Origin: an uncultured Chloroflexia bacterium
GTDB taxonomy: Bacteria; Chloroflexota; Limnocylindria; Limnocylindrales; CSP1-4
Assembly (NCBI GenBank): GCA_963744095.1
Contig: CAVUSH010000006.1
Location: forward strand, 389,670-453,669
Direction of reading: 5' to 3'
Length of the DNA stretch: 64,000 nucleotides
Both the position numbers and the translations under genes were made by a program. A model generated the notes under the pieces. It had not been told where the DNA came from, did not search any database, and was given only the letters and a program-made list of their open reading frames with translations. Positions 1-62,991 of the stretch are shown piece after piece (the first letter of the stretch is position 1; every line of letters begins with the position of its first letter).

Positions 1-1315
1 TCCGGCCGACCGGCCGGACGATGTCGTCGTAGAACCGGCTCGTCATCTCGTAGGGCCGGAAGAGCGGGCCGATCCCGCCCCCGTGACGGTCGAGCGCCCA
101 GTCGTGGGAGATGCCGAACTCGAACGTCGAGCCCGCCTCCGGGTGGATCTTGCAGAGGTCCTCCAGGGCCTGGGCGATGCGCTCGTTCTCGTCGAGCATG
201 CTGTAGGCCATGCTGTCCTGCTCCCAGGCGTAGGACGCGATGATCACGCCCTTGTCGATGTCCGGGTCCTGGCCCGCCGGCGTGTAGACGACGTTGCGGA
301 TGGCGAGGTCGGTCACGGTCACGCCGTGGGTGATGGCGTAGTCGTCGACCCACCAGCGGCGGCTGAACTGCATGAAGATCTTGTGGGCCCGGCCGTAGTA
401 GACGTTGCGGATCGTGAACCACTTGTCGATGTCGAGGCCGTTGATCTCCATGTGCCGGAGGAGCACGAAGGGGACGGTCAGGATGCACTCGTCGGCAGTG
501 ACCGATCCCGGGGTGCCCACGCTGTCCCTGAAGTGGACGACGACGTCGTCCCGGCGCTGCTCGATGGCGTGGACCTCGGCTCCGAGTCGCGTGTCGTTCA
601 GGAGCGCCGGGGCGAACGCGTCGGCGAGGGTGTCCGCCCCGGCGTCGATGTACTCCAGGTCCCCGAAGACGTCCTCGTGCCAGTGGGCGAACCACTCGAC
701 CAATGAGAAGTGGAAGCGCCCCTCGAGGTTGAAGAGCGGGCCCATCAGGGCGAGCGCCTGCTCGCTGACTCCACGCTCGACGAGGAAGCCCAGCAGGGAG
801 TAGCGGTCGTAGCGCTCGACGACGCGCTCCCAGCCGCCGGGCTCCGCCACGAGGTCGGTGAGCGGGCGCATCGCGTCGCGGAGGATCTCCGCCGGGGGCC
901 GGCCGCGCTCTCCGGGCGGCAGGTCGAAGTCGAAGCTGTCGGCGGTGAAAGCGCTCCGGCGCACGCTCCTGCCGTTCAGGTGGATGAACGTGTCCTGGTC
1001 CTCCATCCCGAACGGCGTCGTCGCGAGGCCGAACCGGTCGTGGATGAGGTGCTGGCCGAGCAGGTGCTGCCGCGGGAAGCGCATCGCCCCGAACTCGCCG
1101 TACATCCGGCCGGCGAACCCGCGATACGTGTAGATCCGCCCACCCAGCCGGTTGCGGGCCTCGAGGACGGTGACGCGGTGCCCCGCCTCCTTGAGCATGA
1201 GCCCGGCCGTGAGCCCGGCGATGCCGGCGCCCACGATGACGACGTGGCGGCGCTCCCCGGCGCGCGCCGGGAGGCCCTCGCGGAGGACGCCCAGCAGGTC
1301 GATGGTCGTGGCCAT
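1..1315 (-). CDS. flavin-containing amine oxidase / L-amino-acid oxidase family protein (about 438 N-terminal codons; C-terminus outside window)
   Basis: Hand translation of the minus strand from ATG 1315-1313 gives MATTIDLLGV...RHVVIVGAGIAGLTAGLMLKEAGHRVTVLEARNRLGGRIYTY... This carries the GxGxxG plus LEAxxRxGGR FAD signature and stays open to position 1. It is absent from the ORF track because no stop lies in the window. Confidence 0.8.
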   Translation of the reverse strand, partial: MATTIDLLGVLREGLPARAGERRHVVIVGAGIAGLTAGLMLKEAGHRVTVLEARNRLGGRIYTYRGFAGRMYGEFGAMRFPRQHLLGQHLIHDRFGLATTPFGMEDQDTFIHLNGRSVRRSAFTADSFDFDLPPGERGRPPAEILRDAMRPLTDLVAEPGGWERVVERYDRYSLLGFLVERGVSEQALALMGPLFNLEGRFHFSLVEWFAHWHEDVFGDLEYIDAGADTLADAFAPALLNDTRLGAEVHAIEQRRDDVVVHFRDSVGTPGSVTADECILTVPFVLLRHMEINGLDIDKWFTIRNVYYGRAHKIFMQFSRRWWVDDYAITHGVTVTDLAIRNVVYTPAGQDPDIDKGVIIASYAWEQDSMAYSMLDENERIAQALEDLCKIHPEAGSTFEFGISHDWALDRHGGGIGPLFRPYEMTSRFYDDIVRPVGR

Positions 1316-1498
1316 CGGCAAACCTTACGGGTGTCGTGCAAGCCCTCCGGGCGGGCGCCGGCCGGGGCCTGACGGGGCGGTGGAGGTCTGACATACCACC
1401 CGGGCCCCGGCCCCATACTCGCGGTGGGCCCCGCGGGCAGGCCGGATGTGTAGCGATCGCCGGCCACGAGACGGCCGACTCCGGGATGGGAGCAGCGC

Positions 1499-12637: not shown

Positions 12638-12841
12638 ATGCAGAACGACGTGCGGGAGCTGCGAACGGGCCGGGGCCTCCGCCAGGAGGACCTCGCGAAG
12701 GCGTTGAAGGTGTCGCGCCAGACCGTCAACGCGATCGAGACCGGGCGGTACCTGCCGTCGTTGCCACTCGCCTTCGCTCTCGCGCGCTACTTCGGCAAGC
12801 CGGTGGAGGAGCTGTTCCATGGAGACGACGATGGGCGCTAG
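12638..12841 (+). CDS. XRE-family helix-turn-helix transcriptional regulator (small, 67 aa)
   Basis: LRTGRGLRQEDLAKALKVSRQTVNAIETGRYLPSLPLAFALARYFGKPVEELF. Confidence 0.9.
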   Translation: MQNDVRELRTGRGLRQEDLAKALKVSRQTVNAIETGRYLPSLPLAFALARYFGKPVEELFHGDDDGR

Positions 12842-29150: not shown

Positions 29151-29152
29151 GA

Positions 29153-29395
29153 CTAGCCTCCTGTGGGGGACGACGATGGGATGGCGACGGTCTCGACCGA
29201 GATCAGCGACAGGCCGAGGTCCCGGATCGCGGCGAGGAGCCCATGGAGGGCGGCCTGGTCGGCCAGCTCGCCGCTGACGAGGGTCGTTCCGTCGGGCTCC
29301 GTCGCCACCGTGAGATCAGCCAACAAGGTCGACCAGGCCGGCGCGAGCTCGCCCTGGACCCGCACTCGGATCTGGTAGCGGACCGAGTGACTCAT
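29153..29395 (-). CDS. small uncharacterised 'DQAALHG' protein, copy S2 (80 aa)
   Basis: RBS GGAGG lies 6 nt upstream of ATG 29395. MSHSVRYQIRVRVQGELAPAWSTLLADLTVATEPDGTTLVSGELADQAALHGLLAAIRDLGLSLISVETV. Confidence 0.7.
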   Translation of the reverse strand: MSHSVRYQIRVRVQGELAPAWSTLLADLTVATEPDGTTLVSGELADQAALHGLLAAIRDLGLSLISVETVAIPSSSPTGG

Positions 29396-29471
29396 CGGGG
29401 ACCTCCGTATGCTCCGGTCCTGTGGGCCGGATCTCATGACGGAGCGTGCCGCTCAACCCCCCACCCGCACA

Positions 29472-34962: not shown

Positions 34963-35037
34963 TGGAGCCGACACTCGGATTTGAACCGAGGACCTGCTGT
35001 TTACGAAACAGCTGCTCTACCGCTGAGCTATGTCGGC
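34963..35037 (-). tRNA. tRNA-Thr (anticodon CGT), CCA encoded
   Basis: The reverse complement GCCGACA-TA-GCTC-AGCGGTA-GAGC-A-GCTGT-TTCGTAA-ACAGC-AGGTC-CTCGG-TTCAAAT-CCGAG-TGTCGGC-T-CCA folds as a 75-nt cloverleaf. The anticodon loop is TT-CGT-AA. Confidence 0.9.
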
Positions 35038-39781: not shown

Positions 39782-39895
39782 GGGACCGCGCGCCGGTCGC
39801 GGGCGGCAACTCTCAACGCGGCCCCGGCCGCTGTTCGTCGCGATCACCGGCTCGCGACCGTTGCTGCCGGGCCACCCGCGTGCAACGATGACGGC

Positions 39896-47090: not shown

Positions 47091-47139
47091 TTGACACGGC
47101 GGCCCAAGGCCGGTATATATCGCGCCACGATATATCGTG
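47091..47139 (+). promoter_or_regulatory. near-consensus promoter plus 14-bp perfect palindrome (candidate PadR operator)
   Basis: TTGACA (47091-47096), a 17-nt spacer and TATATA (47114-47119). The palindrome CACGATATATCGTG sits at 47126-47139, over the expected transcription start. ATATATCG is also directly repeated at 47114 and 47130. Confidence 0.6.
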
Positions 47140-47163
47140 AAGCGTAAGAAAGGTCCTCCACAC

Positions 47164-47487
47164 ATGGTCACGCCGCTCCCGGAGCTCGGCCGGTTCGCCG
47201 AGCCGGCGCTCCTCATCATGGTCAGCCTGTCCGACGGTCCCAAGCACGGCTACGCGATCATGGCCGACGTCGAGAAGGGGACCGGGCGGCCGATGGGTCC
47301 CGGGACCCTCTACGCGGCCTTGGCCCGGCTCGAGGAGCGCGGCTTCGTCGAGGCGCTCCCACCCGTCGATCGGCGGCGGCCGTATCGCCTGACGGCACTG
47401 GGTGCCACCACGGTTGCCGAGCAGCTCCGCGAGCTGTCGGCCTTCGCCGAGCTCGGCCTGCGCCGGCTCGGGCAGTCACCCGGCTGA
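47164..47487 (+). CDS. PadR-family transcriptional regulator
   Basis: ...ALLIMVSLSDGPKHGYAIMADVEKGTGRPMGPGTLYAALARLEERGFVEAL...RRRPYRLT. Confidence 0.9.
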   Translation: MVTPLPELGRFAEPALLIMVSLSDGPKHGYAIMADVEKGTGRPMGPGTLYAALARLEERGFVEALPPVDRRRPYRLTALGATTVAEQLRELSAFAELGLRRLGQSPG

Positions 47488-47503
47488 CAGGGCGACGCGT
47501 CCC

Positions 47504-48262
47504 ATGATCGCCCTCCTCCTCCGCCTCTATCCCGCCGGCTGGCGTGCCCGCTACGGCGACGAGTTCGGGGCGCTCCTCGCGGAGCGGCCCCTGGGCCCGT
47601 TCGACGTGGCCGACGTCCTGCTCGGCGCGCTCGATGCCCACCTCCACCTGCGGGGGCTGGGCTCCTGGTCCGAACATCGAAGGGGGTTCCCCATGTCGCT
47701 CCGCCTCGGAGGGATTGCCGCCGCGATCGGCGGTGCCATGTTGTTTGCCGGCTTCCTGTGGACCGTGGCCGACCCCGCGGACCAGGATCCCGGCGGCGCC
47801 CTCGGCCTGCTCGGGTCGATCGTGCTTCTCATCGGCCTGACCGGGCTCAGCGCGTTCCAGGCCCGCACCCACCGGGCTCTCGTTTGGGCGGCGTTCGCGC
47901 TGCCGGCCCTCGGCGGCGTCCTGACGGCGGCCGGCCTCCTCCAGATGGGCCTGGTCGGCGACCAGCCCGTCGCGGGGATCTACGGCTGGAGCCTTCTCAT
48001 CATCGGGTTGATCGCGATCATCGTGGGCTCGCTGCTGTTCGCGATCGCGACGTATCGAACGGCCGCCCTGCCGCGCTCGGGGGCGGCGATCCTGGGGATC
48101 ACCGCGGCCGTCTCGGTGGTCTCGTTCGTTACTGCCTCGAGCCTTGCCGGAGCTCAGCCCGTCCTGGAGGCCGGGCTCGGTGCGTTCGCGCTCGGCTGGG
48201 TCGTCCTCGGCCTGCAGGCGATCCGCCTGGATCGCCCGGTCATGGCCACAGGAGCCGCCTGA
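47504..48262 (+). CDS. PadR-associated membrane protein, paralogue A1
   Basis: MIALLLRLYPAGWRARYGDEFGALLAERPLGPFDVADVLLGALDAHLHL... is followed by 6 TM segments. Confidence 0.75.
   Translation: MIALLLRLYPAGWRARYGDEFGALLAERPLGPFDVADVLLGALDAHLHLRGLGSWSEHRRGFPMSLRLGGIAAAIGGAMLFAGFLWTVADPADQDPGGALGLLGSIVLLIGLTGLSAFQARTHRALVWAAFALPALGGVLTAAGLLQMGLVGDQPVAGIYGWSLLIIGLIAIIVGSLLFAIATYRTAALPRSGAAILGITAAVSVVSFVTASSLAGAQPVLEAGLGAFALGWVVLGLQAIRLDRPVMATGAA
47505..47725 (+). repeat. ~220-bp near-identical direct repeat, copy 1 (5' end of paralogue A1)
   Basis: About four mismatches to 49003-49223 (offset 1498 bp). The remainders of the two genes are only moderately similar. Confidence 0.8.
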
Positions 48263-48349
48263 CCGACGCGACCTACGGGGGCAGCGGCGCCCGGATTGCC
48301 TGCGCGGTGATCGAACCCGACTGAAGGAGCAACGGGAGGGGGGACTCAG

Positions 48350-48979
48350 GTGCCAGTCGTGGCTCGCTCGTTGACGGCATCGCCGTTCGGCTCGAACCGC
48401 CTGCTCGGGCTGGCCGGCATCGTCGGCGGCGCCGTCCTGCTCGTCGCGTTCGTGGTCGACATCGCCCCGGAGCTCAATTCCCTGCGGCTGATCCTCTACA
48501 ACGTCGGCGCGGTTGCGATCATCGCAGCGGTCCACCTTCTCCAATCGCCGATCGCCCCCAGGCTGGCGCTCCTCGGTGCGGTGCCGGCGCTCGTCGCCAA
48601 CGTGGGGCACCTCGTGATGATCGTCCTCGCGACAGGCCGGCCCGAGCCGATCGGCGCCGGCGCCTTCGGGCTCGTCTACTTCTGGGTCACGATGGCGATG
48701 TGGCTGACCGATGCCTGGTTCGGGGTCGTGACCCTCCGGCTCGGCGTCGTGTCACGGGTCGGGGCGCTGACCCTGGCGATCGGATCCGTGCTCGCGTTCA
48801 CGGGGCTGGATCGCCTCGGGCTCGTGTCCTCCGCCAGTCCGACCGTCTTCAACACCCTCGCGCTCGCCGGCATCGCCGTCCACGGGATCGGCTGGATCCT
48901 CCTCGGGATCGACGTCGCGACGCGACGGCAAGCTCTCGCGTCGCCACAACACGACGGGGCTCCGGATGGCTGGCCCTGA
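48350..48979 (+). CDS. hypothetical 6-TM membrane protein
   Basis: 209-aa hydrophobic ORF between the two paralogues. It overlaps the next start by 14 nt. Confidence 0.65.
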   Translation: MPVVARSLTASPFGSNRLLGLAGIVGGAVLLVAFVVDIAPELNSLRLILYNVGAVAIIAAVHLLQSPIAPRLALLGAVPALVANVGHLVMIVLATGRPEPIGAGAFGLVYFWVTMAMWLTDAWFGVVTLRLGVVSRVGALTLAIGSVLAFTGLDRLGLVSSASPTVFNTLALAGIAVHGIGWILLGIDVATRRQALASPQHDGAPDGWP

Positions 48980-49766
48980 GCGGACCGACAGGGCGCGTCC
49001 CCTGATCGCCCTCCTCCTCCGCCTCTATCCCGCCGGCTGGCGTGCCCGCTACGGCGACGAGTTCGGGGCGCTCCTCGCGGAGCGGCCCCTGGGCCCGTTC
49101 GACGTGGCCGACGTCCTGCTCGGCGCGCTCGACGCCCACCTCCACCTGCGGGGGCTGGGCTCCTGGTCCGAACACCGAAGGGGGTTCCCCATGTCGCTTC
49201 GCCTCGGAGGGATCGCCGCCGCCGCCGGCGGCGTCCTCATCCTCACCGGGTGGGTCTGGGCCGGGCTGGACCCGGCCGACTCTGATCCAGGCTTCTGGTT
49301 CTTCCTGGCCGGCATGATCGCCCTGCTGGTCGGCCTGACCGGCCTCAGCGCCTTCCAGGCCCGCACCCACCCGGCCCTCGTCTGGGCGGCGTTCCTCGTG
49401 CCGGCGATCGGCGGCGCAGTCATGACGCTCGGCCTCATCGCCATGACCGTGTCTCCCGACCGTCCGCTCGTCGGCGACTGGGCAGGCTGGAACTTCTTCT
49501 TCCTCGGCCTGCTGACCACCGTGGCCGGGTCGTTCCTGTTCGCGGTCGCCACGCTCCGGACCCGGGCCCTCCCGCGCGCCGGGGCCGCATTCCTCGCGAT
49601 CGCCTCCGGACTCGCGCTCCTGTCGTTCGTCGGGTCCATGGGCCTGGGCGACTGGCTCCAGCCGGTCTTCATCGCCGGCTTCCTCGCCTTCCCGGTCGGC
49701 TGGATCGTCATGGGCCTCCAGGCAATCCGCCTGGATCGACCCGGCATTGCCACCGGCGCCGCTTGA
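48966..49766 (+). CDS. PadR-associated membrane protein, paralogue A2
   Basis: ...PLIALLLRLYPAGWRARYGDEFGALLAERPLGPFDVADVLLGALDAHLHL... The C-terminal GLQAIRLDRPGIATGAA parallels A1. Confidence 0.75.
   Translation: MAGPERTDRARPLIALLLRLYPAGWRARYGDEFGALLAERPLGPFDVADVLLGALDAHLHLRGLGSWSEHRRGFPMSLRLGGIAAAAGGVLILTGWVWAGLDPADSDPGFWFFLAGMIALLVGLTGLSAFQARTHPALVWAAFLVPAIGGAVMTLGLIAMTVSPDRPLVGDWAGWNFFFLGLLTTVAGSFLFAVATLRTRALPRAGAAFLAIASGLALLSFVGSMGLGDWLQPVFIAGFLAFPVGWIVMGLQAIRLDRPGIATGAA
49003..49223 (+). repeat. ~220-bp near-identical direct repeat, copy 2 (5' end of paralogue A2)
   Basis: See 47505-47725. Confidence 0.8.
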
Positions 49767-53100: not shown

Positions 53101-54849
53101 TCAGGCGATCCCACCCTCGGCGGCGAGCTGCTCGGCGGCCTCCGCCGGGAGCCAGAACCAGCGCAGGTGCTCGAAGTCCGGACCAACGGGGAGGGGTCCC
53201 GCCACGCCTTCCGGCGTGGGCGGGGGCGTGGCGAGAAGGGCCCGCGCCTCCTCCAGGTAGGCGCCGAGGCGCGACTCCGGCTCGCGGTGGCGATGGGCCG
53301 CGTACCGCATGGCCCCCTTCTCGTAGCGGACGCCCAGGAGCGAGAGCGGCGGTTCCACGGTGCCGCCGCGATGGAGCCAGAGCCCGGTGAGCGGGTCGAA
53401 GCGGTACTGCGGCAGGAGGCGCCAGCCCTCGCGGGCGACCAGGTCGACCGACTCGAGCACGAAATCGAAGACGGCCTCGCTGATGAAGTAGTTGAAGTTG
53501 ACCCGGACCCAGCCCGGCTTGATCCCCTCGCAGCCGCGGGCGATCTCGCGCTCGAACTCGCGGGAGCGCTCCAGGTCGATCCCGAGGAGCCGGTGGCCGT
53601 ACGGCCCGGCGCACGAGCAGCCGCCGCGGGCCTGGATGCCGAAGAGGTCGTTGAGGAGCGCGACGACGTAGTTGTGGTGGAGGTAGCGGCCCTCGTGGCG
53701 GACGACGAACGAGACGATCGACAGCCGGGGGAGGGCCGGGTTGCCCAGGATCTCCAGGGCCGGGTTCGCCCGCCAGCGCTCGATCGCCCGGCGGATGAAG
53801 TCCTCCTCGCGCTCCCGGATCGCGGCCACGCCGACGGCTTCCTTGAGCTGGAAGACGAGGCCGGCCCGGATCAATTCGACGATCGCCGGCGTGCCGCCCT
53901 CCTCCCGGTGCTCCACGTCGTCGAGGTAGACGTGCTCGGTGGGGTTGACGTAGGCGACGGTGCCGCCGCCGGGCACCGTGGGGACGCGATTGCGGAAGAG
54001 GTCGCGGCGGGCGACGAGGATGCCCGGCGTGCCGGGCCCGCCGATGAGCTTGTGGGGCGAGATGAAGATCGCGTCCTTGGTGTCGAGGGCGGCGTCGGCC
54101 GGGTCGCCGTCGGACGGGGAGCCGTCGGGCGCCGGCCGCCGCGGCGCCATCTCGACCTCGACGTACGGCGCGCTGGCGGCGAAGTCCCAGAACGAGAGCG
54201 CGCCGTGGCGGTGCAGCAGGACCGAGATCGCCCGCGTGTCGGACAGGATGCCGGTGACGTTGGAGGCCGCCGAGAAGCTGCCGATCCGCAGCGGCCGGCC
54301 GGCGTGGCGGACCAGCTCGGCCTCCAGGCGGGCGAGGTCGATTCGTCCGTCGGCGTCCTCCGGGATCGTGATGACGTCGGCGATCGACTCGCGCCAGGGG
54401 AGCTCGTTGCTGTGATGCTCGTAGGGGCCGATGAAGACGACCGGGCGCTCCGCGGCGGGGATCCGGGCGGCCAGGCCGTACCGCTCGTCCAGCTCGGCCG
54501 GGAGCCGCAGCCCCAGGACGTGGACGAGGCGGTCGATGGCGGCGGTCGAGCCGGACCCGACGAAGATGACGACGTGCTCGTCGGTCGCCCCGACGGCGTC
54601 CTTCACGATCTGGCGCGCCTCGGCCCGGAAGCGGGTCGTCTGGAGCCCGGTGCCCGACGATTCGGTGTGGGTGTTCGCGTACAGGGGAAGCACGGCGTCG
54701 CGGAGGTAGTCCTCGATGAAGGTGAGGCTCCGGCCGGACGCGGTGTAGTCCGCGTACGTCACCCGGCGCACGCCGAACGGGCCGGCCACGGCCTCGTCGT
54801 CGCCGACGACGGAGCGGCGGATGGTCTCGATGAGGGGGGTCGCGTCCAT
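53101..54849 (-). CDS. aminotransferase class V-fold PLP-dependent enzyme (cysteine desulfurase/selenocysteine lyase-like, long form)
   Basis: 582-aa ORF. ...VTYADYTASGRSL...YANTHTESSGTG...VIFVGSGSTAAID...FSAASNVTGIL...FISPHKLIGGPGTPGILV. Confidence 0.8.
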   Translation of the reverse strand: MDATPLIETIRRSVVGDDEAVAGPFGVRRVTYADYTASGRSLTFIEDYLRDAVLPLYANTHTESSGTGLQTTRFRAEARQIVKDAVGATDEHVVIFVGSGSTAAIDRLVHVLGLRLPAELDERYGLAARIPAAERPVVFIGPYEHHSNELPWRESIADVITIPEDADGRIDLARLEAELVRHAGRPLRIGSFSAASNVTGILSDTRAISVLLHRHGALSFWDFAASAPYVEVEMAPRRPAPDGSPSDGDPADAALDTKDAIFISPHKLIGGPGTPGILVARRDLFRNRVPTVPGGGTVAYVNPTEHVYLDDVEHREEGGTPAIVELIRAGLVFQLKEAVGVAAIREREEDFIRRAIERWRANPALEILGNPALPRLSIVSFVVRHEGRYLHHNYVVALLNDLFGIQARGGCSCAGPYGHRLLGIDLERSREFEREIARGCEGIKPGWVRVNFNYFISEAVFDFVLESVDLVAREGWRLLPQYRFDPLTGLWLHRGGTVEPPLSLLGVRYEKGAMRYAAHRHREPESRLGAYLEEARALLATPPPTPEGVAGPLPVGPDFEHLRWFWLPAEAAEQLAAEGGIA

Positions 54850-54969
54850 CCGCGGATCGTAGCCCCCGCCGAGCGAGCGCTGGCGGCGACACTGCGGCCG
54901 CCATCGCGGCGCCGGGCGTGCCCACTGCGAGCCGCTCGCGAGCTCGGCGCATCCGCCGCGGAGCGTGGG

Positions 54970-56234
54970 TCAGGCGAGCCCGCGGCCCTTCTCGAGGACG
55001 ACCTGGAGGTCCTGGGTCACGCCCGTCGCGAAGCTCGCCTCGCTGATCGCCAGGTAGTAGTCCCACATCCGGATGAACTCCTCGTCGAAGCCCATCGCCC
55101 GGACCGTGTCGAGCCGTTCGAGGAAGCGCGCCCGCCAGGCCCGGAGCGTCCGGACGTAGTGCGGGGCGATGTCCTCGACGTCCCGGATGAGCAGGCGCGT
55201 TCGATGGGTCGACCGTTCAATGACCGCCAGGGACGGCAGGAGGCCGCCCGGGAAGATGTAGGTCTGGATCCAGTTGGCGCGACGGCGCTGCGGCTCGTAG
55301 GCGACGTCCGGGAAAGTGATCGTCTGGAGGCTCATCCGGCCACCCGGACGGAGCGCCCGGTCGCACGCTTCGAAGAAGGCGGAGTAGAACTCCGCCCCCA
55401 CGGCCTCCAGCATCTCGATCGAGACGATCGCGTCGTACGTGCCCCGGATGTCGCGGTAGTCGCGCAGCTCGACGCTGACGCGCTCTGCGAGGCCCGCGTC
55501 ACGGACCCGCTCGGTCGCCAGCGCATGCTGGGCCTGCGAGATCGTGATCGTGGTCACGCGGCAGCCCAGCTCGCCGGCGGCGTAGAGGGCGAAGCCGCCC
55601 CAGCCGGTGCCGATCTCCAGGACGTGCTCGCCGCCGCGCAGGCCCGCCCGTTCGGCGATGACCGCGTACTTGGTGCGCTGGGCATCGGCCAGCGACTGCC
55701 CGGGCGTGGCGAAGACGGCGCTCGAATACGTCATCGACTCGTCCAGGAAGAGCCGGTAGAAGTCGTTGCCCAGGTCGTAGTGGGCGGCGATGTTGCGCCG
55801 GCTCTGCCCGACCGTGTTCCGGCGAGCGCGGTGGGCCATCGTCCGCTGGATCCGCACGGGGAGGCGCCACCACCCGCCCGAAAGGGCGAGCGCGTCGCGG
55901 TTGAGCGCCGCCACCCGGAACAGGGCCGGCAGGTCGGGGCTCGACCAGAGGCCGTCCATGTAGGCCTCGCCCGCACCGATGTCGCCGGCCAGCAGGAGGC
56001 GGGCCACGGCCGTCGTGTCGTGGATGTGCATCTGCGCCGCCTGGTCGGAGGCGCGTCGCCGAAGACCCGGCGCGAGCCGTCGGGCAGGACGATCGTCAGG
56101 CGTCCGACGTGGATCCGCCGCGCGGCGCTGAGCATGACCCGCCGGGCGACGCGCTCGACGAAGCGATCGACCAGGCGATCGGCGCGCGAGCCCCGGCGCG
56201 CTCCGGACCGCCTCGCCGCGGCGCCTTCGCTCAT
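54970..56234 (-). CDS. cyclopropane-fatty-acyl-phospholipid synthase (Cfa)-family SAM-dependent methyltransferase, frame broken at ~56050 (behaves as a 1-nt deletion)
   Basis: MSEGAAARR...RIHVGRLTIVLPDGSRRVFGDA is followed, after the shift, by SDQAAQMHIHDTTAVARLLLAGDIGAGEAYMDGLW...HYDLGNDFYRLFLD...VLEIGTGWGGFALYAA... Confidence 0.85.
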
Positions 56235-56971
56235 CGCGCCATCTGGCTGCGCCGGAAGAGCTCCGTGCCCCGCGTCCAGAGGCGCAGGGCGTGCCACAGG
56301 ATCAAGCCCATCGTCCGGTGGGAGAGCAGCGGGTGGCGCAGCAGCATCCGGGCCAGCGTCCGATCGGTCAGCCGCTTTCGGCGCAGGACCAGGCTCGCGC
56401 TGAGCACCTGCTCCTGGCCCTGCCGCTCGTCGATGGCGATGCGCACGCCATCGTGATCGTCGCGGACGTGCACCGTGTACCGGCCCTCCATCCCGATGAA
56501 CGGTGACACGAAGAACGCCTTCTCCATCGAGCCCACGAAGCGATCCCCCTCCCTCTCGGGGTGGAGCGTGTACAGGTGCCGCTCGCCGAAGGTGTTGTGG
56601 ACCTCCACGATCACGACCCGGAGGATGCCACGCGCGTCGCGGCAGAGGAAGAAGCTCGCCGGGTTGAAGACGTACCCGAGGACCCGCAGGCTCGTGATCA
56701 GCGTCACGCGCCAACCCTCGGGATCCAGGCCCTCCGAACGAAGGTGCGCCCGGACGTCGACGTCGATGTCGCGGGACGGGACCACCAGGTGGTCCTCGTC
56801 CCGGAACGTCACGACGTTCGCCCGGTTGCGGCTCACCAGGCGCAGCCGGCCGATGACGTCGTCGAGCTCGGCGAGGTCCAGGGCGAAGTAGAAGACGTCA
56901 TGCTCGAGCTCGTAGACTCGAGGGCGCGCCCGGCGATGGCGGACCTTGCCCTCGAGGAGATGCGACCTCAT
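56231..56971 (-). CDS. DUF1365 domain-containing protein
   Basis: [33 protein letters not shown]...[13 protein letters not shown]...[15 protein letters not shown] overlaps sit at both ends. Confidence 0.85.
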
Positions 56972-58297
56972 GCAGCGCGCTCCGCGTCGCCCGCGTCGGC
57001 GTCGGCGTAGGCCGTGTCACCGTCGGCTTCGGCGTCCGCCCGCCCGGCCGCCATCAGCATCTCGGCGACCTCGAAGCCCGAGCGGCAGCCGTCCTCGTGG
57101 AAACCGTACCCGAGGTGTGCGCCGGCGTACCAGGTCCGCAGGTGGCCCTGCAGGTCGCGGATCCCCACCTGGGCGTCGAGCGTCCTGAACGTGTACATCG
57201 GGTGGCTGAAGGCGCGCTCGACGATCACGTGCTCCGGGCTGATCGCCTCGCCGGGGTTGAGCGAGACGCAGTACTGGACTGGGCCGGGGAGCGACTGCAG
57301 GCGGTTCATGTGGTACGTCATCGTGAGGGCGTCGCCGGGGAGCCGGCAGTCCGCGGTACGCACGTTCCACGAGGCCCGGGCGTGCGGGCTGGCCGGCAGG
57401 ATGCTCTCGTCCGTGTGCAGGACGACATGGTTCATCGAGTACTCGAAGCCGCCCAGCACGTCGCGCTCGCCCGCGTCCGCGTCGGCCAGGAGGCGGAGGG
57501 TGTCGTCGGCATGGGTCGCCATGACGACGGCGTCGAATCGCTCCGAGCGGCCGCCGGCTGTCCGGACGGTGACCCCGCGGGAATCGCGGAGGACACCGGC
57601 CACCGGATCGCCGGTCCGCACCGAGCCCGCGGGCAGGGCCTCGACGATCCGGGCCACGTATTCCCGCGACCCGCCGCGGATCACGCGCCACTGCGGCGCG
57701 TTGCCGTAGCCGATCAGCCCATGGTTGTCGAGGAAGTGGAGGAGGTAGTCGACGGGGAACTCCAGGGCCCGATCCGCCCCGGTCGACCAGACGGCCGAGG
57801 TGATCGGGACCAGGAAGTGCTCCCGGACGCCGCGCCCGTAGCGGTGCTCGTCCATCCAGCCGCCGAGGGTCGCCCGGGTGCGCTCCGGCGCGTCCAGCGT
57901 CTGTCGGGCGTCGCGGTAGAAGCCGGGCGATGTCGGCGAGCATCCGCAGGTGGGTCGGCCGGCCGAGCAGCGAGGCATTCGGGAAGATGCCGCGGGCGCC
58001 GCGCGAGCTGAAGCTGATCCGGCAGGCGTCGCAGGCCGAGCCGAGCGACATGTCGCTCGGTTGCGTGGCGACCCCGAGCTCGGCAAGGAGCCCGACGAAG
58101 CGCGGGTAGGTGCGCTCGTTGTAGACGATGAACCCGGTGTCGACCGGTACCGGTCCGGCGTCCGTCTCCACGGTCACGGTCTTCACGTGGCCGCCGGCGA
58201 CGGGATCCTGCTCGAAGAGGGTGACCCGGTGGTCCCGGCGCAGCGCGTAGGCGGCGGTGAGCCCGCTGACGCCCGCTCCGACGATCGCGATCTTCAT
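56968..58297 (-). CDS. NAD(P)/FAD-dependent oxidoreductase (amine-oxidase/desaturase-like), frame broken at ~57922
   Basis: [41 protein letters not shown]...[11 protein letters not shown] is followed, after a +1 shift, by [29 protein letters not shown]...[13 protein letters not shown]...[13 protein letters not shown]. Confidence 0.85.
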
Positions 58298-58755
58298 CGG
58301 TCCGTCCCTCGGCGCGTCGCGGCGCGCTCGTCGAGCGCGCGCTGCATGCCGTCGCGCGCCTGGCGGGCGACTTTCGCGAAGGCGCCGCCGGCGAAGGGAG
58401 CCACCAACCGCTTCACGCCGCGGAGCCGGATGTCCGCCGTGTAGTCGATCCGGGTGCCCTCCGGCGTCGCCTCGAACCGGATGTCGTCGACGGCCGAGAG
58501 ACCGGAGCCCTCGCCGGCCAGCACGACGCGGCGCAGCGGCTCGAGGGCCGTGACGCGGTACTCCATGCTCGCGACGCCGCCGCCCATCCGCACGCCGAGG
58601 CGATAGCGCGCCCCGATGGCGACGGGCCCCGGGTCGAGCCGCTCAGAGGTGGCGACGCCGGGGTCCCAGTCCTTCGTGTTCGCGAAATCGGCGACGAAGG
58701 CGAACGCCTCGTCGAGGGGCAGGGGAGTCTCGATGCGCTCGTTCAGCGTGGTCAT
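58294..58755 (-). CDS. SRPBCC family protein (first gene of the lipid-modification operon)
   Basis: [34 protein letters not shown]... The stop overlaps the oxidoreductase start (ATGA). Confidence 0.8.
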
Positions 58756-58791
58756 GTTGCATCCTGTACAGAGTTCGTATAAGGTATGCGA

Positions 58792-58834
58792 AGCCTACGG
58801 CCACGCAGGCGGTCGTGTCAAGTGTTCGTACAAT
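58792..58834. promoter_or_regulatory. back-to-back promoters of the SRPBCC operon (minus) and the heliorhodopsin operon (plus)
   Basis: Minus strand: TTGACA (58821-58816), an 18-nt spacer and TAGGCT (58797-58792). Plus strand: TACAAT at 58829-58834, 28 nt before the heliorhodopsin ATG. The region is locally AT-rich. Confidence 0.5.
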
Positions 58835-58862
58835 GTTGTGAAGAGCAGAGGGAGAGCGGGAG

Positions 58863-59750
58863 ATGACGCACGTCGAGGCCACTGGAGCCGACCCGGCGCA
58901 GCTGGGGGCAGCCGCCCGCTCAGCCACGCCCGCGAACCACGCCGCGCCGGCGGCGATCGATCTGGCGGCGATCGATCCCGCGCGTGCGCGCGGACTTCAC
59001 CGCTGGAACGTGGTGCTCGCGGGTCTCCACGCGGTGCAGGGCCTGGCGATCCTGGCAATCTCGTTCGCGAAGAGCCCGGTCGTCTCCGCGCCGGTGGTGA
59101 GCAGCTATCTCACCTTCGACACCGCGACGAGCACCCTCGTCCCCGCCCAGCGCGCGCTCTTCGACCTCCCGATCGGGCCCGCCGTCGCGCTCTTCTTCTT
59201 CCTCAGTGCGATCGCCCACTTCGCCGTCGCGTTCCCGGCGCGCCGCTGGTACGAACGCAGCCTCGCGCGCGGCCAGAACCCGGCCCGCTGGATCGAGTAC
59301 GCCCTCTCGTCGAGCGTGATGATCGTCGTCATCGCGACGCTGTCGGGGATCCAGGAGGTCGGGACGCTCGTCGCGATCTTCGGCATCAACGCGGCGATGA
59401 ACCTCTTCGGCTGGAGCATGGAGGCCGCGAACGAGGGCCGGACGCGCGTCCAGTGGCTCCACTACGTCTTCGGGTGCATCGCCGGTGCCGTCCCGTGGAT
59501 CGTCATCACGATCGCGCTCTGGACCGCCGCGACCGCGCCCGGCGCCGCGCCCATCCCCGGCTTCGTGATCGCGATCTTCGTCTCGCTCTTCATCAGCTTC
59601 AACGTCTTCGCGATCAACATGGTCCTGCAGTACCGGAAGACGGGTCGCTGGGCCGACTACCTCTACGGCGAGCGCGCGTACATGCTCTTCAGCCTCGTGG
59701 CAAAGACCCTCCTCGCCTGGCAGGTCTTCGCCGGTACCCTGCGGCCGTAG
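58863..59750 (+). CDS. heliorhodopsin
   Basis: 295-aa 7-TM ORF. NPARWIEYALSSSVMIVVIA, FGINAAMNLFGW, FGCIAGAVPW and GERAYMLFSLVAKTLLAWQVFAGTLRP closely parallel the remembered HeR 48C12 segments RWVEYSLSSSVMIVLIA, FGCIAGIVPW and GERAYIVLSLVAKSALAWQIFSGTLIP. Both the counter-ion Glu and the Schiff-base Lys are present. Confidence 0.9.
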   Translation: MTHVEATGADPAQLGAAARSATPANHAAPAAIDLAAIDPARARGLHRWNVVLAGLHAVQGLAILAISFAKSPVVSAPVVSSYLTFDTATSTLVPAQRALFDLPIGPAVALFFFLSAIAHFAVAFPARRWYERSLARGQNPARWIEYALSSSVMIVVIATLSGIQEVGTLVAIFGINAAMNLFGWSMEAANEGRTRVQWLHYVFGCIAGAVPWIVITIALWTAATAPGAAPIPGFVIAIFVSLFISFNVFAINMVLQYRKTGRWADYLYGERAYMLFSLVAKTLLAWQVFAGTLRP

Positions 59751-59751
59751 C

Positions 59752-60747
59752 GTGGATCTTCGACCGCTGATCGATGCCGGCCTCGAGATCTCGGTCGTCG
59801 GCAGCTTCACCCGGATCGGGCCCGCGGTCCGGCGGCGGCTCTTCGGCTGGTCGCCAGCGCCCGCTGGCGCGCTGGCCGGCCGGACCGTGCTCGTCACCGG
59901 GCCGACGTCCGGGCTCGGCCGGGCCGCGACCCACGTGCTCGCCGGCCTCGGGGCGCGGGTGGTCCTCGTGGGACGCAGCCAGGAGCGGCTGGCACGCCTC
60001 CGCGACGAGCTGATCCGGGTCCACGGCGAGGATCGCTTTCCCGTGGTCGTCGCCGACATGGGCTCGCTCGCCTCGGTGCGGGCCGCGGTCGCCCGTGTTC
60101 TCGCGACGGAGCCGCGCCTCGACGTCCTGGTCGACAACGCCGGGGCGATCTACCCGGAGCGGATCGAGGGGCCGGACGGGATCGAAGCGACCCTGGCCGT
60201 CCTCGTGGTCGGCCCCTTCGCGCTGGTCGCCGGGCTGCAGCCGCTCCTGGGCCGGACGGCCGGCTCGCGCGTGATCGCCGTGACGTCGGGTGGCATGTAC
60301 ACGCAGCGCCTCGACCTCGACGACCTGCAGTGCCGCGTTGGCGGCTTCTCCGGCGCCCGCGCCTACGCCCGGGCGAAGCGGGCCCAGGTCGCGCTCGTGC
60401 GGGAGTGGGCGCGCCGCCTCGCCGGCATGTGCGTTCCGGCGTCCGGCGTTGCGTTCACGGCGATGCACCCGGGGTGGGCTGACACACCGGGCCTCGCGGA
60501 GTCCCTGCCGGGCTTCCACCGGCTGATGCGCCCCCTCCTCCGCACGGCCGCGGAAGGCGCCGACACGATCGCCTGGCTCGCCACCCATCCCGACCCCGCG
60601 TCGACGAGCGGTCGGCTCTACCTGGATCGCCGGCCGCGCCCGTTCGACCGCGCCCCGGCGACGCGGCTCTCGGCGCACGATCGCCGGCGGCTCTGGGACG
60701 AGGTGGTGGAGCTGAGCGGGGAGCCGGATCCGACACCCGCCGGCTGA
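59752..60747 (+). CDS. SDR-family oxidoreductase (RDH/DHRS12-like subgroup)
   Basis: The GTG start lies 1 nt after the heliorhodopsin stop. GRTVLVTGPTSGLGRA...LVDNAGAI...VTSGGMY...YARAKRAQVAL...MHPGWADTPGL. Confidence 0.85.
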   Translation: MDLRPLIDAGLEISVVGSFTRIGPAVRRRLFGWSPAPAGALAGRTVLVTGPTSGLGRAATHVLAGLGARVVLVGRSQERLARLRDELIRVHGEDRFPVVVADMGSLASVRAAVARVLATEPRLDVLVDNAGAIYPERIEGPDGIEATLAVLVVGPFALVAGLQPLLGRTAGSRVIAVTSGGMYTQRLDLDDLQCRVGGFSGARAYARAKRAQVALVREWARRLAGMCVPASGVAFTAMHPGWADTPGLAESLPGFHRLMRPLLRTAAEGADTIAWLATHPDPASTSGRLYLDRRPRPFDRAPATRLSAHDRRRLWDEVVELSGEPDPTPAG

Positions 60748-60825
60748 CGCGACGCTGGTCGTTCGCCACGCCTGGCGGTCGAGCGCGTTTCACCCGGCTC
60801 GATCAGCGCCCGTGAGGCCGCTGCC

Positions 60826-61030
60826 GGGGCGAGTGCCCCTGTCGCGGATCAGCCGCGCCGACTCACCGCCGCGGCGATGGCCGCCGCGGCCGGGGCGAGT
60901 GCCCCCGTCGCGGATCAGCCCGCGCCGACTCACCGCCGCGGCGATGGCCGCCGCGGCCGGGGCGAGTGCCCCCGTCGCGGATCAGCCCGCGCCGACTCAC
61001 CGCCGCGGCGATGGCCGCCGCGGCCGGGGC
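60826..61030. repeat. tandem repeat, 3 copies of a 66-67-bp unit, abutting the litR-like stop codon
   Basis: GGGGC unit starts fall at 60826, 60892, 60959 and 61026. The unit is GGGGCGAGTGCCCC(C)GTCGCGGATCAGCC(C)GCGCCGACTCACCGCCGCGGCGATGGCCGCCGCGGCC. Confidence 0.9.
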
Positions 61031-61978
61031 TCAGCGGCGCCGGCTCACGACCTCTGCGACAGCCGCCGCCGCGGCCACCACGTGGTCGGGCAGCACCAGA
61101 ATCCTGCCGCCCGGGGCAAGCTCCGGCCCGGCGGCGGCGCCCCCGACGGCGATGATCGGGACCGCCTGCGCCTGGAGCGCCGCGACCACGGCAGCCGCGG
61201 CCTCGCGGTCGGCCACAACGACCACCCCGATGACCGCGGCGCGCGCGCGCGACTTCCTGAAGACGTCGACCCAGCCCTCGACCGTCACGTCGGGCCCGAG
61301 GTAGAGCACGCCGACGCCGCGACGGCGGAGCGCGGCGGCGAAGGCCAGGGCTCCGAGCTCGTGGCGCGCACCGGGCGGCAGCCCGACGACGACGGACGGG
61401 CGGGTCGGGATCCCGGCGGCCTGGTAGATCGCGGCGAGGCGCCGACCGGCGGCGGCACTCGCGGCGTGCTCGGCCGCCACGCTGAGCGTGCCCGCCGCCC
61501 ACGCGTCGCCGAGGGCCGCGGCTGCGGGAAGGAGAATGTCGTCGACGACCGCCTCGAACGATCCCGCGGCGAGGATGGCATCGAGGGCCGCCTCGGTGTC
61601 GGCGGGCGACGCGGATTCCGCGGCGGAGACGAACCGGTCGATCAGCCGGGCCCGATGGACGGCCGCCCCGGACGCCCCGGCGGGTTCGGCAGGCTGCGGG
61701 CCCGCGAGCGCGCCCGCGCGTCGGTCCGGAGGCGGCGCGACCACCCGGTCCTCGACGGCCACCTCGCCCGCCGAGATCGCGCGCGCTGCTTCCGACGCCG
61801 TCCAGCCAGATTCGACGAGCGCCCGCATCGTGAGCAGGACCCCGATCGTCGCGTCGTCGTAGAGCCGGTATCCGGCGGCCGTGCGGGTCGGCTTGACCAC
61901 GCCGTAGCGCCGCTCCCAGGCCCGGATGAGGGGAGCGCCAACGCCTGAGCGTGTCGAGGCTTCCTTGATGGTGTACAT
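61031..61978 (-). CDS. MerR-family regulator with C-terminal cobalamin-binding domain (CarH/LitR-type light-responsive regulator)
   Basis: The N-terminal MerR HTH is MYTIKEASTRSGVGAPLIRAWERRYGVVKPTRTAAGYRLY. The helical-bundle motif W-x9-EH (DAWAAGTLSVAAEHA) is present. The Rossmann B12 motif RHELG (xHxxG) is followed by GVGVLYLGPDV. Confidence 0.8.
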   Translation of the reverse strand: MYTIKEASTRSGVGAPLIRAWERRYGVVKPTRTAAGYRLYDDATIGVLLTMRALVESGWTASEAARAISAGEVAVEDRVVAPPPDRRAGALAGPQPAEPAGASGAAVHRARLIDRFVSAAESASPADTEAALDAILAAGSFEAVVDDILLPAAAALGDAWAAGTLSVAAEHAASAAAGRRLAAIYQAAGIPTRPSVVVGLPPGARHELGALAFAAALRRRGVGVLYLGPDVTVEGWVDVFRKSRARAAVIGVVVVADREAAAAVVAALQAQAVPIIAVGGAAAGPELAPGGRILVLPDHVVAAAAAVAEVVSRRR

Positions 61979-62066
61979 GGTATGTCCAACCCTAGCACGA
62001 GATCAACCCTCCGCACAACGGGGAGGCTGGTCATCGCGTGACACCAGGGATGCGCCGCCGCCGAAT

Positions 62067-62212
62067 GCCCGGCACGTCACCATGCCGGCTGGCTGCCCGG
62101 CACGTCACCATGCCGGCCGGCTGGCTGCCCGGCACGTCACCATGCCGGCCTGGCTGCCCGGCACGTCACCATGCCGGCTGGCTGCCCGGCACGTCACCAT
62201 GCCGGCCGGCTG
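62067..62212. repeat. tandem repeat, 5 copies of a 28-32-bp unit between the XRE-like gene and litR
   Basis: The core GCCCGGCACGTCACCATGCCGG starts at 62067, 62095, 62127, 62156 and 62184. Copy 5 encodes the last codons and the TGA of the gene at 62194-62991. Confidence 0.9.
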
Positions 62213-62991
62213 CCGGCGGCGGAACGGGGTCCCGTCACGCTCGGCGGCCGTCGCCAGGCGAACACGCGCGTCGTGGCCACGTCGCACCAGACGAGGCCGG
62301 TACCCCGGGGCGCCGGAGCCCCCGAGACGAGGGCGCGCACCCATCCGGCCGACGAGCCCGGGAAGCGCGCAGCGAACACCTCCGGGTAGCGGGCGACGAG
62401 TGCCCGGTTCCTGGCCGTCGCCCGCACGAGCCAGACCAGGCCGACGTCACCTGCCGTGTCGCCCCAGCGAGCCGTCGCGAGGGCCTCGGCCTCCGCCCGC
62501 TTCCTGTCGCTGGATCGCGCTGAAGCGCCGACGTCGCCGATCGTGTTCCAGCATTCGACGAGAAGAAGCCGCCGCCTGGCAGGATCCTCCAGCCCGACGT
62601 CGGATGATCGCCACGGCTCACTCGGCCTCGTTGCGAGCTCGAAGCTCAGCCCGTACCCGGCCACCCGGCCAAGCCGAAGCACGAGCTCCTGCATTCCCAG
62701 GTGAGGCGCGTCGCTGGTCTCACCGGCGACGTTCCGCTGGAGCACTACCACGAGTGGCCGGTCCACGGCCAGTCCGATCCGCTGCCACGCGTCCAGCGTC
62801 AACCCGGCGCCGTGACCGCGTTCGGCGCGGCTGATCGACTGGCGGGCAAGCCCCACACGCGCGCCGAGCTGCTGCTGCGTGAGGCGCTTCGCAACGCGCC
62901 CCGCCCTGACCTCGCCCCCGAGACGGGCGCATTGCTCCCTGGCGCGGCGCTCGGCTTCGACCGAGAGGCTGGTGCGGATCCGGGTCGGCAT
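62194..62991 (-). CDS. XRE-family HTH protein with uncharacterised ~170-aa C-terminal domain
   Basis: Starts at MPTRIRTSL. The HTH is RVAKRLTQQQLGARVGLARQSISRAERG. The C-domain ...FELATRPSEPWRSSDVGLEDPARRRLLLVECWNTIGDVGA... could not be assigned to a family. Confidence 0.65.
   Translation of the reverse strand: MPTRIRTSLSVEAERRAREQCARLGGEVRAGRVAKRLTQQQLGARVGLARQSISRAERGHGAGLTLDAWQRIGLAVDRPLVVVLQRNVAGETSDAPHLGMQELVLRLGRVAGYGLSFELATRPSEPWRSSDVGLEDPARRRLLLVECWNTIGDVGASARSSDRKRAEAEALATARWGDTAGDVGLVWLVRATARNRALVARYPEVFAARFPGSSAGWVRALVSGAPAPRGTGLVWCDVATTRVFAWRRPPSVTGPRSAAGSRPAW

Follow-up and report, generated by a model that had tools for sequence, protein, structure and literature searches.

What does a heliorhodopsin (HeR) do for the cell that carries it, and what decides when it is made? 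Upon illumination, proteins of this family isomerise a retinal bound to a lysine of transmembrane helix (TM) 7 and transfer the Schiff-base proton to internal acceptors, a pair of histidines among them, giving rise to a photo-intermediate that persists for seconds. The family is reported from monoderm prokaryotes, its cellular role is known in few cases only (glutamine synthetase, photolyase, ABC transporter), and to our knowledge neither 48C12 nor TaHeR performs net ion transport. Earlier neighbourhood surveys have found oxidative-stress genes, cobalamin-binding proteins, MerR regulators and short-chain dehydrogenases/reductases (SDRs) near HeR genes, as statistical categories only. The locus considered here lies in a 64,000-nt stretch of DNA of an uncultured Chloroflexia bacterium (assembly GCA_963744095.1, contig CAVUSH010000006.1, positions 389,670 to 453,669 of the forward strand; hereafter, the window), in which a first-pass annotation, made from the letters without database searches, had recognised a HeR gene. 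Together with its relatives, this locus turns the survey categories into a specific and testable model of HeR regulation, according to which the gene would belong, with a probability of roughly 70%, to a light-induced regulon of the CarH type. The informative part is the context, which the first-pass annotation had not described: a CarH/LitR-type gene, operator-like repeats, an SDR gene and a cluster resembling furan-fatty-acid genes.

The heliorhodopsin gene and its host

The open reading frame (ORF) was found where it had been placed, running on the plus strand from an ATG at 58863 to a TAG at 59748-59750 and encoding 295 residues. Its GC content at third codon positions (GC3) of 0.93 is as expected of a real gene in a window, and a genome, of 72% GC, and a purine-rich Shine-Dalgarno stretch (GAGGGAGAGCGGGAG) stands directly 5' of the start codon. 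The Pfam model PF18761 (Heliorhodopsin) is the only Pfam match and is covered completely (model positions 1-242 of 242; 316.5 bits, cutoff 26.7), the NCBIfam equivalog model NF038020 scores 317.1 bits (cutoff 100), and a sequence search of the PDB returned heliorhodopsins only, with TaHeR (6is6, E=3.9e-63) and 48C12 (6su3, E=7.8e-57) among them; the profile searches thus gave heliorhodopsin and no other family of seven-helix proteins. The identity over the aligned region amounts to 46.7% with TaHeR and 44.9% with 48C12, and it is this full-length identity of 45-47% to solved structures that settles the family membership. The four peptide blocks by which the gene had first been recognised are all present in the translation, and the 48C12 strings given for comparison agree with the sequence of the solved protein as aligned. 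The gene is, hence, confirmed as a genuine, intact and full-length heliorhodopsin.

The two residues named in the first-pass annotation also hold their places: K281 aligns with the Schiff-base lysine (K241 of 48C12, K238 of TaHeR) and E145 with the counter-ion glutamate (E107 and E108, respectively). The PDB chain numbering reproduces the published positions K241 and E107 of 48C12, and those of TaHeR after a 6-residue tag offset. The conserved His pair of TM1 and TM2 is represented by H56 and H119 (48C12 H23 and H80), and the query retains all of the 48C12 residues H23, S76, H80, N101, W105, E107, S237 and K241; further conserved residues of the query include S115, N139, W143, Y146, S149-151, S277 and W286. 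Hydropathy resolves the seven hydrophobic helices claimed earlier into segments ~47-70, 101-126, 141-163, 164-186, 198-221, 231-256 and 270-293. With 15 Lys and Arg residues on the side of the N-terminus and of loops 2-3, 4-5 and 6-7, and 3 on the opposite side, the protein fits the inverted HeR topology with a cytoplasmic N-terminus that the positive-inside rule predicts. The helices are preceded by an Ala/Pro-rich N-terminal extension of ~45 residues, predicted to be cytoplasmic and variable among relatives.

Taken alone, the gene is an ordinary new member of a known family, as HeR genes are common in the host clade: 364 related stretches were confirmed in a collection holding one genome per species. 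The best 80 of these 364 relatives (labelled L001-L080) were used for comparison, with synteny counted by tblastn; GC3-based gene calls misplaced some genes in related loci, for example the CMAS and DUF1365 genes of L002. All of these best 80 loci are metagenome-assembled genomes (MAGs) of Chloroflexota, labelled Limnocylindrales, "uncultured Chloroflexia" and similar, and their HeR proteins are 68-90% identical to the one studied. To judge from these relatives, the host is a Limnocylindria-type Chloroflexota; an actinobacterial host, which the GC content of ~72% might suggest, is ruled out by the same 80 loci. Chloroflexi are listed among the HeR-bearing phyla (PMC8612252). A look-up of the exact HeR sequence among public assemblies gave no match on record.

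Repeats in the control region

The HeR gene is divergent from a gene for an SRPBCC-type protein, and the short region between the two (Table 1) was aligned across 23 sequences, namely the window and 22 syntenic loci. The blocks shared by 80% or more of these sequences are TTGC, CC-TGTnnA, TTTGTAnAAnnT, A...TA and GTCAAG.G...G. They may be read as two overlapping, face-to-face promoters, overlain at a spacing of 11 bp by the word TGTnnA, which reads TnnACA on the minus strand. The putative HeR promoter takes the form TTGC-N16-TGTATAAT in relatives; the first candidate operator site, O1, overlaps its spacer and -10 hexamer, while the last repeat of the second one, O2 (TTGACA), coincides with the predicted -35 hexamer of the SRPBCC promoter.

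The 18-nt pattern TGTNNANNNTTYGTANAA has exactly two matches in the 64 kb, at 58765 and 58816, both of them in the control region, where 0 would be expected by chance in the whole window. A relaxed form of the repeat pattern gave five matches in the window, two in the control region and one on the start of the regulator gene described below. The operators of CarH are built from 11-bp direct repeats in tandem, three in Thermus and four in Bacillus, of the form nAnnTnnACAn and laid over the -35 and/or -10 hexamer (PMC8156234), and the window repeats agree with this consensus in their core and in the 11-bp spacing. Scanned over its full length with Rfam, the window yielded one tRNA only and no riboswitch, of the cobalamin or any other type, near the locus.

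A CarH/LitR-like regulator beside the heliorhodopsin gene

A gene whose product combines a MerR-type helix-turn-helix with a module for binding adenosylcobalamin (AdoB12) lies 1.3 kb downstream of HeR, convergent with the intervening SDR gene. The Pfam models MerR_1 (53 bits) and B12-binding_2 (35.9 bits) match above their cutoffs, and the protein aligns over both domains with the CarH/LitR of Thermus thermophilus (3whp, 5c8d; E ~2e-35). Its Wx9EH motif (WAAGTLSVAAEH) falls on that of CarH, and the axial-histidine motif reads PPGARHELGA as compared with PPGERHEIGA in the T. thermophilus protein. By these features the protein may be regarded as a class I-like CarH/LitR regulator, and it is not called an equivalog.

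The start of this carH-like gene carries the same kind of repeats (window site TGGACAtaccATGTACA). A -10 hexamer is followed directly by two repeats, the first of which is non-coding, whereas the second contains the ATG. This layout, a TAnnnT hexamer abutting TnGACA-n5-TGTACA with the start codon inside, is kept in the window and 26 further loci, and suggests that the carH mRNA is leaderless and that carH is autoregulated. The gene is also flanked by two tandem arrays whose units have no other copy in the window: 3.2 copies of a 67-bp unit (97% match) at 60817-61030, between the SDR and carH stop codons, and 5.1 copies of a 28-bp unit at 62066-62214, 88-236 bp upstream of carH, the latter unit forming a hairpin CCGGCA...TGCCGG. 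These arrays may be terminator or insulator hairpins, or variable number tandem repeats.

Distribution of the repeats among related loci

The double-repeat pattern occurs 44 times in the 20.8 kb upstream of HeR genes, in 32 of the 80 loci, as compared with 2 matches in 114 kb of other intergenic DNA (507 regions), in which it is ~120-fold rarer; locally shuffled HeR-upstream sequences gave 0.31 matches on average and never more than 3. A position weight matrix derived from the syntenic loci and applied to the 58 loci outside this training set found 13 matches in 15.7 kb upstream of HeR versus 6 in the remaining 894 kb. Three loci, L053, L074 and L075, account for five of these six, and in each of them a CarH-like gene is located 1.2-2.4 kb upstream of HeR.

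At least five further genomic contexts in the related MAGs also have the repeats in front of HeR. In L048, L051, L054, L065, L069 and L073, the HeR neighbours of which are unrelated to those in the window, three tandem 11-bp repeats stand before HeR and overlap TTGACA-17-TAnnnT; in TGTACAtaccc TTGACAgagta TGTACA, for example, the middle repeat is a perfect -35 hexamer, with TAnnnT following 17 nt later. As far as sequence can tell, this layout matches the textbook design of a CarH operator (PMC8156234). Meanwhile, the ufa/SDR clusters in which the SDR gene, not HeR, is directly divergent from the SRPBCC gene (L039, L041, L055, L079) contain no repeats in that intergenic region, and the HeR of L039 and L041, situated one gene further on, has repeats of its own. 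The enrichment upstream of HeR, the repeats on the carH start and the repeat-free intergenic regions of clusters into which HeR is not inserted lead to the conclusion that the repeats travel with HeR and carH and not with the ufa cluster. We infer that HeR is a core member of the CarH regulon in this clade.

A second motif, ATCC-N17-GAAG(A/G), is found ~115-185 nt before the start of the HeR Pfam domain in L015, L017, L020, L021, L024, L034, L035, L036, L038, L040, L043, L046, L049, L050, L077 and L079. The consensus of the RpoE/ChrR singlet-oxygen promoter is TGATCC-N16-CGTA (PMC5507510), and as only the -35 half of the motif resembles it, assignment to RpoE/ChrR was rejected and the motif was left as "ECF-like, unproven" (ECF, extracytoplasmic function sigma factor).

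Some side observations on the related loci deserve to be recorded. In L048, L051, L054, L069 and L073 a GC-rich hairpin, CACGGGC(c/t)GT(c/t)GCCCCGTG, lies in the 5' untranslated region of HeR, ~20-45 nt before the ATG and between the CarH-type promoter and the ribosome-binding site; the window has no such hairpin. Recurrent HeR neighbours are DUF4397 genes (L039, L041, L045, L053) and NAD(P)-dependent oxidoreductases of more than one family, namely aldo-keto reductases (L034, L063, L069) and NmrA-like NAD-binding proteins (L075, L079); PAS histidine kinases, fumarase and further genes also occur beside HeR. In L075 an SRPBCC-plus-NmrA-like fusion gene is divergent from carH, and its ORF ends at the first base of the HeR ORF.

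Neighbouring genes

The positions of all features discussed are given in Table 1. At the junction CCG TAG C GTG a single base separates the HeR stop codon from the start of the SDR gene, which is probably co-transcribed with HeR, and the order of HeR followed by SDR is conserved in ~22 of the best 80 loci. The best NCBIfam match of the SDR, PRK06197 (124 bits), stays under its cutoff, and the PDB matches are generic; a citronellol-catabolism dehydrogenase and protochlorophyllide reductases are among the NCBIfam and PDB matches.

Table 1. Features of the heliorhodopsin locus and its surroundings (positions in the window).
Feature	Position	Strand	Basis and remarks
Gene without family match, 427 residues	51790-53073	-	
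Class V aminotransferase/cysteine desulfurase-like gene, 622 residues	53101-54969	-	long N-terminal extension
ufaM-like gene, CMAS-family S-adenosylmethionine-dependent methyltransferase	54970..56234	-	Pfam CMAS, 287.7 bits
ufaO-like gene, DUF1365, 246 residues	56231..56971	-	Pfam DUF1365, 240.3 bits
ufaD-like gene, FAD/NAD amine-oxidase type	56968..58297	-	Pfam NAD_binding_8 and Amino_oxidase, on both halves
SRPBCC (Polyketide_cyc2) gene, 153 residues	58294..58755	-	Pfam, 69.3 bits; lead gene of the divergent operon
Divergent control region, 107 bp	58756..58862	.	54% GC vs 72% in the genome; predicted promoters and CarH-type repeats
HeR promoter (predicted)	58757..58783	+	footprint; -35 TTGCAT (58757-62), 15-nt spacer, -10 TATAAG (58778-83)
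Candidate operator site O1	58765..58785	-	TATACG-n5-TGTACA, 11-bp spacing; kept in 22 syntenic loci
SRPBCC-ufa promoter (predicted)	58792..58821	-	footprint (blocks GTCAAG and A...TA); -35 TTGACA (58821-58816), 18-nt spacer, -10 TAGGCT (58797-58792)
Candidate operator site O2	58816..58842	-	TTCACA / TGTACG / TTGACA; footprint and pattern scan
Heliorhodopsin gene, 295 residues	58863..59750	+	Pfam, NCBIfam and PDB matches, residue alignment
SDR-family oxidoreductase gene, 331 residues	59752..60747	+	Pfam adh_short, 80.5 bits; GTG start
CarH/LitR class I-type regulator gene, 315 residues	61031..61978	-	MerR-type helix-turn-helix and AdoB12-binding module
carH start region	61972..61994	-	-10 TAGGGT (61994-61989), then TGGACA-tacca-TGTACA (61988-61972)

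On the other side of the control region, 107 bp from HeR, the SRPBCC, ufaD-like, ufaO-like and ufaM-like genes form a four-gene operon joined by ATGA overlaps. The proteins UfaD, UfaO and UfaM have been described, UfaO being a DUF1365 protein (PMC7380195), and the succession of FAD enzyme, DUF1365 and CMAS genes is the ufaD-ufaO-ufaM order of Rhodopseudomonas palustris RPA2571-2569 (PMC7380195). Family content and gene order thus point to an operon of the furan-fatty-acid type. The ufaM-like gene was also compared with the NCBIfam models of cyclopropane fatty acid synthase and scored 301 and 271 bits, under the cutoff in both cases. The full arrangement seen in the window is retained in 26-28 of the 80 loci.

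The reading frames of HeR, SDR, carH, SRPBCC and DUF1365 are intact. Two frameshifts are present. At 57922 an additional C interrupts the ufaD-like gene, whose orthologue in L002 is intact (89% identical on both sides), and near 56055 the ufaM-like gene lacks 1 nt in comparison with L002 (88-89% identical orthologues). Real decay and assembly indel errors explain these equally well, the latter because several pairs of overlapping same-strand ORFs occur elsewhere in the window. Such high-GC3 pairs or triplets, overlapping out of frame, are located at 12605-13208, 27865-29452, 47095-48262 and 48311-49766, and suggest further frameshifts, be they indel errors or pseudogenes. In L068, the HeR of which is ~89% identical, alignment of L068:1-2123 with 53782-59662 of the window shows that a block corresponding to ~54866-58695 has been deleted; it comprises ufaM, ufaO, ufaD and most of the SRPBCC gene, of which a 44-nt remnant of ufaD is left, with the operator repeats and HeR kept. 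The frameshifts and this deletion indicate that HeR does not depend on its ufa neighbours.

The 622-residue and 427-residue genes follow the ufa-like genes in the closest relatives only (L001, L002, L068). The possibility that they form an encapsulin cargo/shell pair found no support, since the family-2A cargo model scores 62.6 bits versus 800 and the 427-residue protein has no match. The N-terminal frame change of the larger gene (possibly 54918-54968) is maybe a start-codon issue only. Elsewhere in the window lie two large MalT/LuxR-type STAND regulators (AAA_16, TPR_MalT and GerE domains; 24294-26969 on the minus strand and 39782-42556 on the plus strand) and a tRNA gene (34966-35037, minus strand).

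Supply of retinal

The ~50 called genes of the 64-kb window were scanned with profiles of Pfam and/or NCBIfam, and the families of phytoene synthase, lycopene cyclase, polyprenyl synthase and carotenoid oxygenase had no match among them. The statement of the first-pass annotation that no crt or blh genes are visible in the window therefore holds for this set. It fits the reported rarity of blh near HeR genes and in genomes that have HeR as their sole rhodopsin (bioRxiv 10.1101/2021.02.16.431466). The CrtI superfamily (amine oxidases) has only two members in the window, one of them ufaD-like. The other, encoded at 2..1324 on the minus strand, was rejected as CrtI, its FAD-binding N-terminus alone matching crtI_fam (34.7 bits, cutoff 238.1). 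The SDR was likewise considered as a retinol/retinal dehydrogenase supplying the chromophore; it has only generic SDR matches in NCBIfam and PDB, which lend this idea no support and leave it a low probability.

Proposed mechanism and alternative explanations

The following sequence of events would account for the locus. The HeR would be a functional, non-pumping protein of the sensory type with retinal on K281, E145 as the counter-ion, H56 and H119 as the internal proton acceptor, and the N-terminus in the cytoplasm. In the dark, a CarH/LitR repressor loaded with AdoB12 would sit on the 11-bp TnnACA repeats and block both divergent promoters as well as its own start; ultraviolet, blue or green light would photolyse AdoB12 and release the repressor, upon which HeR-SDR and the SRPBCC-ufa operon, a furan-fatty-acid-type system presumed to act in singlet-oxygen defence, would be expressed together. 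HeR would then probably be made only in the light, alongside membrane-protection genes. Most likely it would act as a switch with a slow photocycle, reporting continuing illumination to a partner protein and modulating it, and for this partner the co-transcribed SDR is the first candidate; the identity of this partner is speculative. The complete scheme, a cascade of two photoreceptors in which the B12 sensor CarH gates the retinal sensor HeR and the latter tunes the SDR and/or the furan-fatty-acid pathway, is rather doubtful as a whole and is put forward tentatively.

CarH binding, light induction and the promoter positions are deduced by comparison, and several observations weigh against CarH control of HeR. 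The B12-binding Rossmann domain of the regulator scores 27 bits, under its gathering cutoff of 32.1, Ala takes the place of the acidic residue in E/DxHxxG (ARHELG), and the best NCBIfam match, TransRegCarH NF052513, reaches 137.7 bits against an equivalog cutoff of 400, which is the reason for the label "CarH/LitR-like". A strict sigma-70/terminator scan of 58200-62400 found no sites, so that the promoters were placed by phylogenetic footprinting. The window repeats are degenerate, with TATACG and TGTACG where TnnACA is expected, and the A at position 2 of the consensus nAnnTnnACAn is offset by one base. About 30 of 81 HeR loci lack the repeats and the second, ECF-like motif alike, and ~18 carry the latter, hence CarH control is not universal even in this clade. 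In addition, the ufaD- and ufaM-like genes are frameshifted in the window, the furan-fatty-acid genes are dispensable for HeR and possibly decaying in this sub-lineage, and no source of retinal was identified among the called genes of the window.

It might also be argued that the linkage is passive, the repeats serving only carH and the ufa operon or being plain promoter elements, with HeR expressed constitutively and its synteny inherited. With 72-90% HeR identity, the syntenic loci are so closely related that their gene order may reflect descent, and part of the conserved sequence does coincide with -35/-10 hexamers. However, the repeats precede HeR with no ufa or carH gene nearby in L048, L051, L054, L063, L065, L069, L073, L078, L080, L045 and L039, they are far rarer in other intergenic DNA, and the ufa/SDR cluster is free of them when HeR lies elsewhere, all of which makes passive linkage quite unlikely. 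A role as a light-driven ion pump or channel, comparable to that of viral V2HeR3, is very unlikely: the fold and the chromophore site would be compatible with it, and one HeR subgroup, that of giant viruses, reportedly transports protons (PMC9448325), but the protein resembles TaHeR and 48C12 most closely, has the single counter-ion of both and the His pair that accepts the proton internally, and stands in a regulatory and enzymatic context from which energy-coupling genes are absent.

Two further proposals concern what HeR acts upon once it has been made. It may be a light-activated allosteric regulator of the SDR, contacting it through the cytoplasmic loops or the N-terminal extension while in the long-lived photo-intermediate; this would refine the last step of the mechanism outlined above and does not exclude that mechanism. 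The one-base junction speaks for it, as do the adjacency of the two genes in ~22 loci, to which L079 adds a case with the order swapped, the recurrence of other NAD(P) oxidoreductases (aldo-keto reductase, NmrA-like) beside HeR in relatives, and the inclusion of "SDR family oxidoreductase" among ten recurrent HeR-operon groups (PMC11109279). The characterised bacterial HeR partners are all reported to be encoded in the same operon as HeR (PMC9529153, PMC9769723, PMC11109279). On the other hand, at least 11 loci have HeR and the operator with no adjacent SDR, the SDR belongs to the ufa cluster ancestrally, even without HeR (L039, L041, L055; the Pseudomonas and Rhodobacter clusters), and its generic family matches indicate no substrate, so SDR regulation is a possibility that falls well short of being probable. 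A direct part in light-dependent remodelling or repair of membrane lipids together with the ufaD-, ufaO- and ufaM-like enzymes, for instance by presenting or sensing fatty-acyl chains through the lateral fenestration, was proposed in general form by Chazan et al. from neighbourhood statistics and from lipid seen in crystal structures. It would agree with the observation that in 26-28 of the 80 loci one control region is common to HeR and an operon of the furan-fatty-acid type, and with the fact that UfaM, UfaD and UfaO build furan fatty acids on acyl chains of membrane phospholipids (PMC7380195), for which protection from membrane-damaging agents has been proposed (PMC7380195). Yet HeR and the operator persist where the ufa genes are frameshifted (the window) or deleted (L068), most HeR loci of the clade have no ufa neighbours, the shared operator is missing from ufa clusters without an inserted HeR, and no HeR is known to have enzymatic activity. 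Because the ufa genes are dispensable and possibly decaying, this role is rated less likely than that of the SDR as the partner, and must be called unlikely.

The individual components surrounding HeR are all of a known kind. What appears to be undescribed is the operator-level link that would make HeR a CarH target in this clade, as well as the insertion of HeR, in the place taken by photolyase in Pseudomonas, into a photoprotection cluster of the LitR type; in the library of papers searched, none names heliorhodopsin together with CarH. The CarH-regulon model predicts light-induced HeR under a B12 photoreceptor, a defined DNA target and a short list of partners (the SDR and the Ufa enzymes). 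If it is true, HeR is tied to photo-oxidative membrane protection and a tractable heterologous system is at hand; if it is false, this is one more ordinary HeR. Should the two-photoreceptor cascade be true as well, HeR would be the central target by which the CarH regulon of Limnocylindria-type Chloroflexota is defined, and heliorhodopsins would gain a concrete physiological setting in the response to photo-oxidative membrane stress.

Comparison with known systems

Like 48C12 and TaHeR, the protein has the Schiff-base Lys, a single Glu counter-ion, the His pair, the Ser/Asn cluster, the C-terminal motif LVAK..LAWQ.F.GTL and a predicted seven-helix topology with the N-terminus inside. Unlike them, it carries the ~45-residue N-terminal extension and comes from a high-GC host of the Limnocylindria type; Q213 of 48C12 is replaced by Met, as in TaHeR. 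The conserved His pair has been linked to formation of the M intermediate (Chazan et al.). Three bacterial HeRs reportedly use their long-lived state to modulate proteins of the same operon (PMC9529153, PMC9769723, PMC11109279). As in these pairs (AbHeR with glutamine synthetase, TfHeR with photolyase, OcHeR with the OmrDE ABC transporter), HeR is here closely joined to an enzyme gene in one operon, but the candidate partner is an SDR and is proposed from gene order. "MerR family regulator" and "SDR" both belong to the ten recurrent HeR-operon groups (PMC11109279); the MerR-type neighbour in the window, however, is convergent with HeR-SDR and not part of the same operon, and is specifically of the B12 photoreceptor type.

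This regulator resembles class I CarH/LitR of Thermus thermophilus, Bacillus megaterium and Myxococcus xanthus in joining a MerR domain to a B12 module of four-helix bundle and Rossmann fold, and its candidate operators, like those of known CarH proteins, are tandem 11-bp TnnACA repeats laid over -35/-10 hexamers and over its own promoter. Known CarH regulons consist mainly of carotenoid genes, whereas the putative targets here are HeR, the SDR and the furan-fatty-acid-like operon.

For the cluster as a whole, the closest parallels come from proteobacteria. In Pseudomonas a cluster of phrB, SDR, FAD oxidoreductase, DUF1365 and ufaM genes is controlled by a LitR-family protein and induced 25- to 33-fold by light (PMC9758184), and the ufaD-ufaO-ufaM trio with an SDR constitutes the conserved RpoE/ChrR singlet-oxygen regulon of proteobacteria such as Rhodobacter sphaeroides (PMC5507510). 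The window shares with both the ufaD-ufaO-ufaM order and the SDR, and with Pseudomonas a light switch of the LitR family. It differs from them in that an SRPBCC gene leads the operon and two genes are frameshifted; the regulator is of class I (B12), in contrast to the class II LitR with LOV in Pseudomonas and the ECF sigma factor in Rhodobacter. HeR occupies the position of the Pseudomonas photolyase, and a photolyase was not found in the window. In the actinobacterial set of Chazan et al., B12-binding neighbours lie near ~2% of HeRs (18/876); DNA photolyase, cobalamin-binding and PAS proteins are among the HeR neighbours listed by these authors, who proposed a role connected with membrane lipids or with oxidative damage; Bulzu et al. 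argued that HeR is a sensor of photo-oxidative stress.

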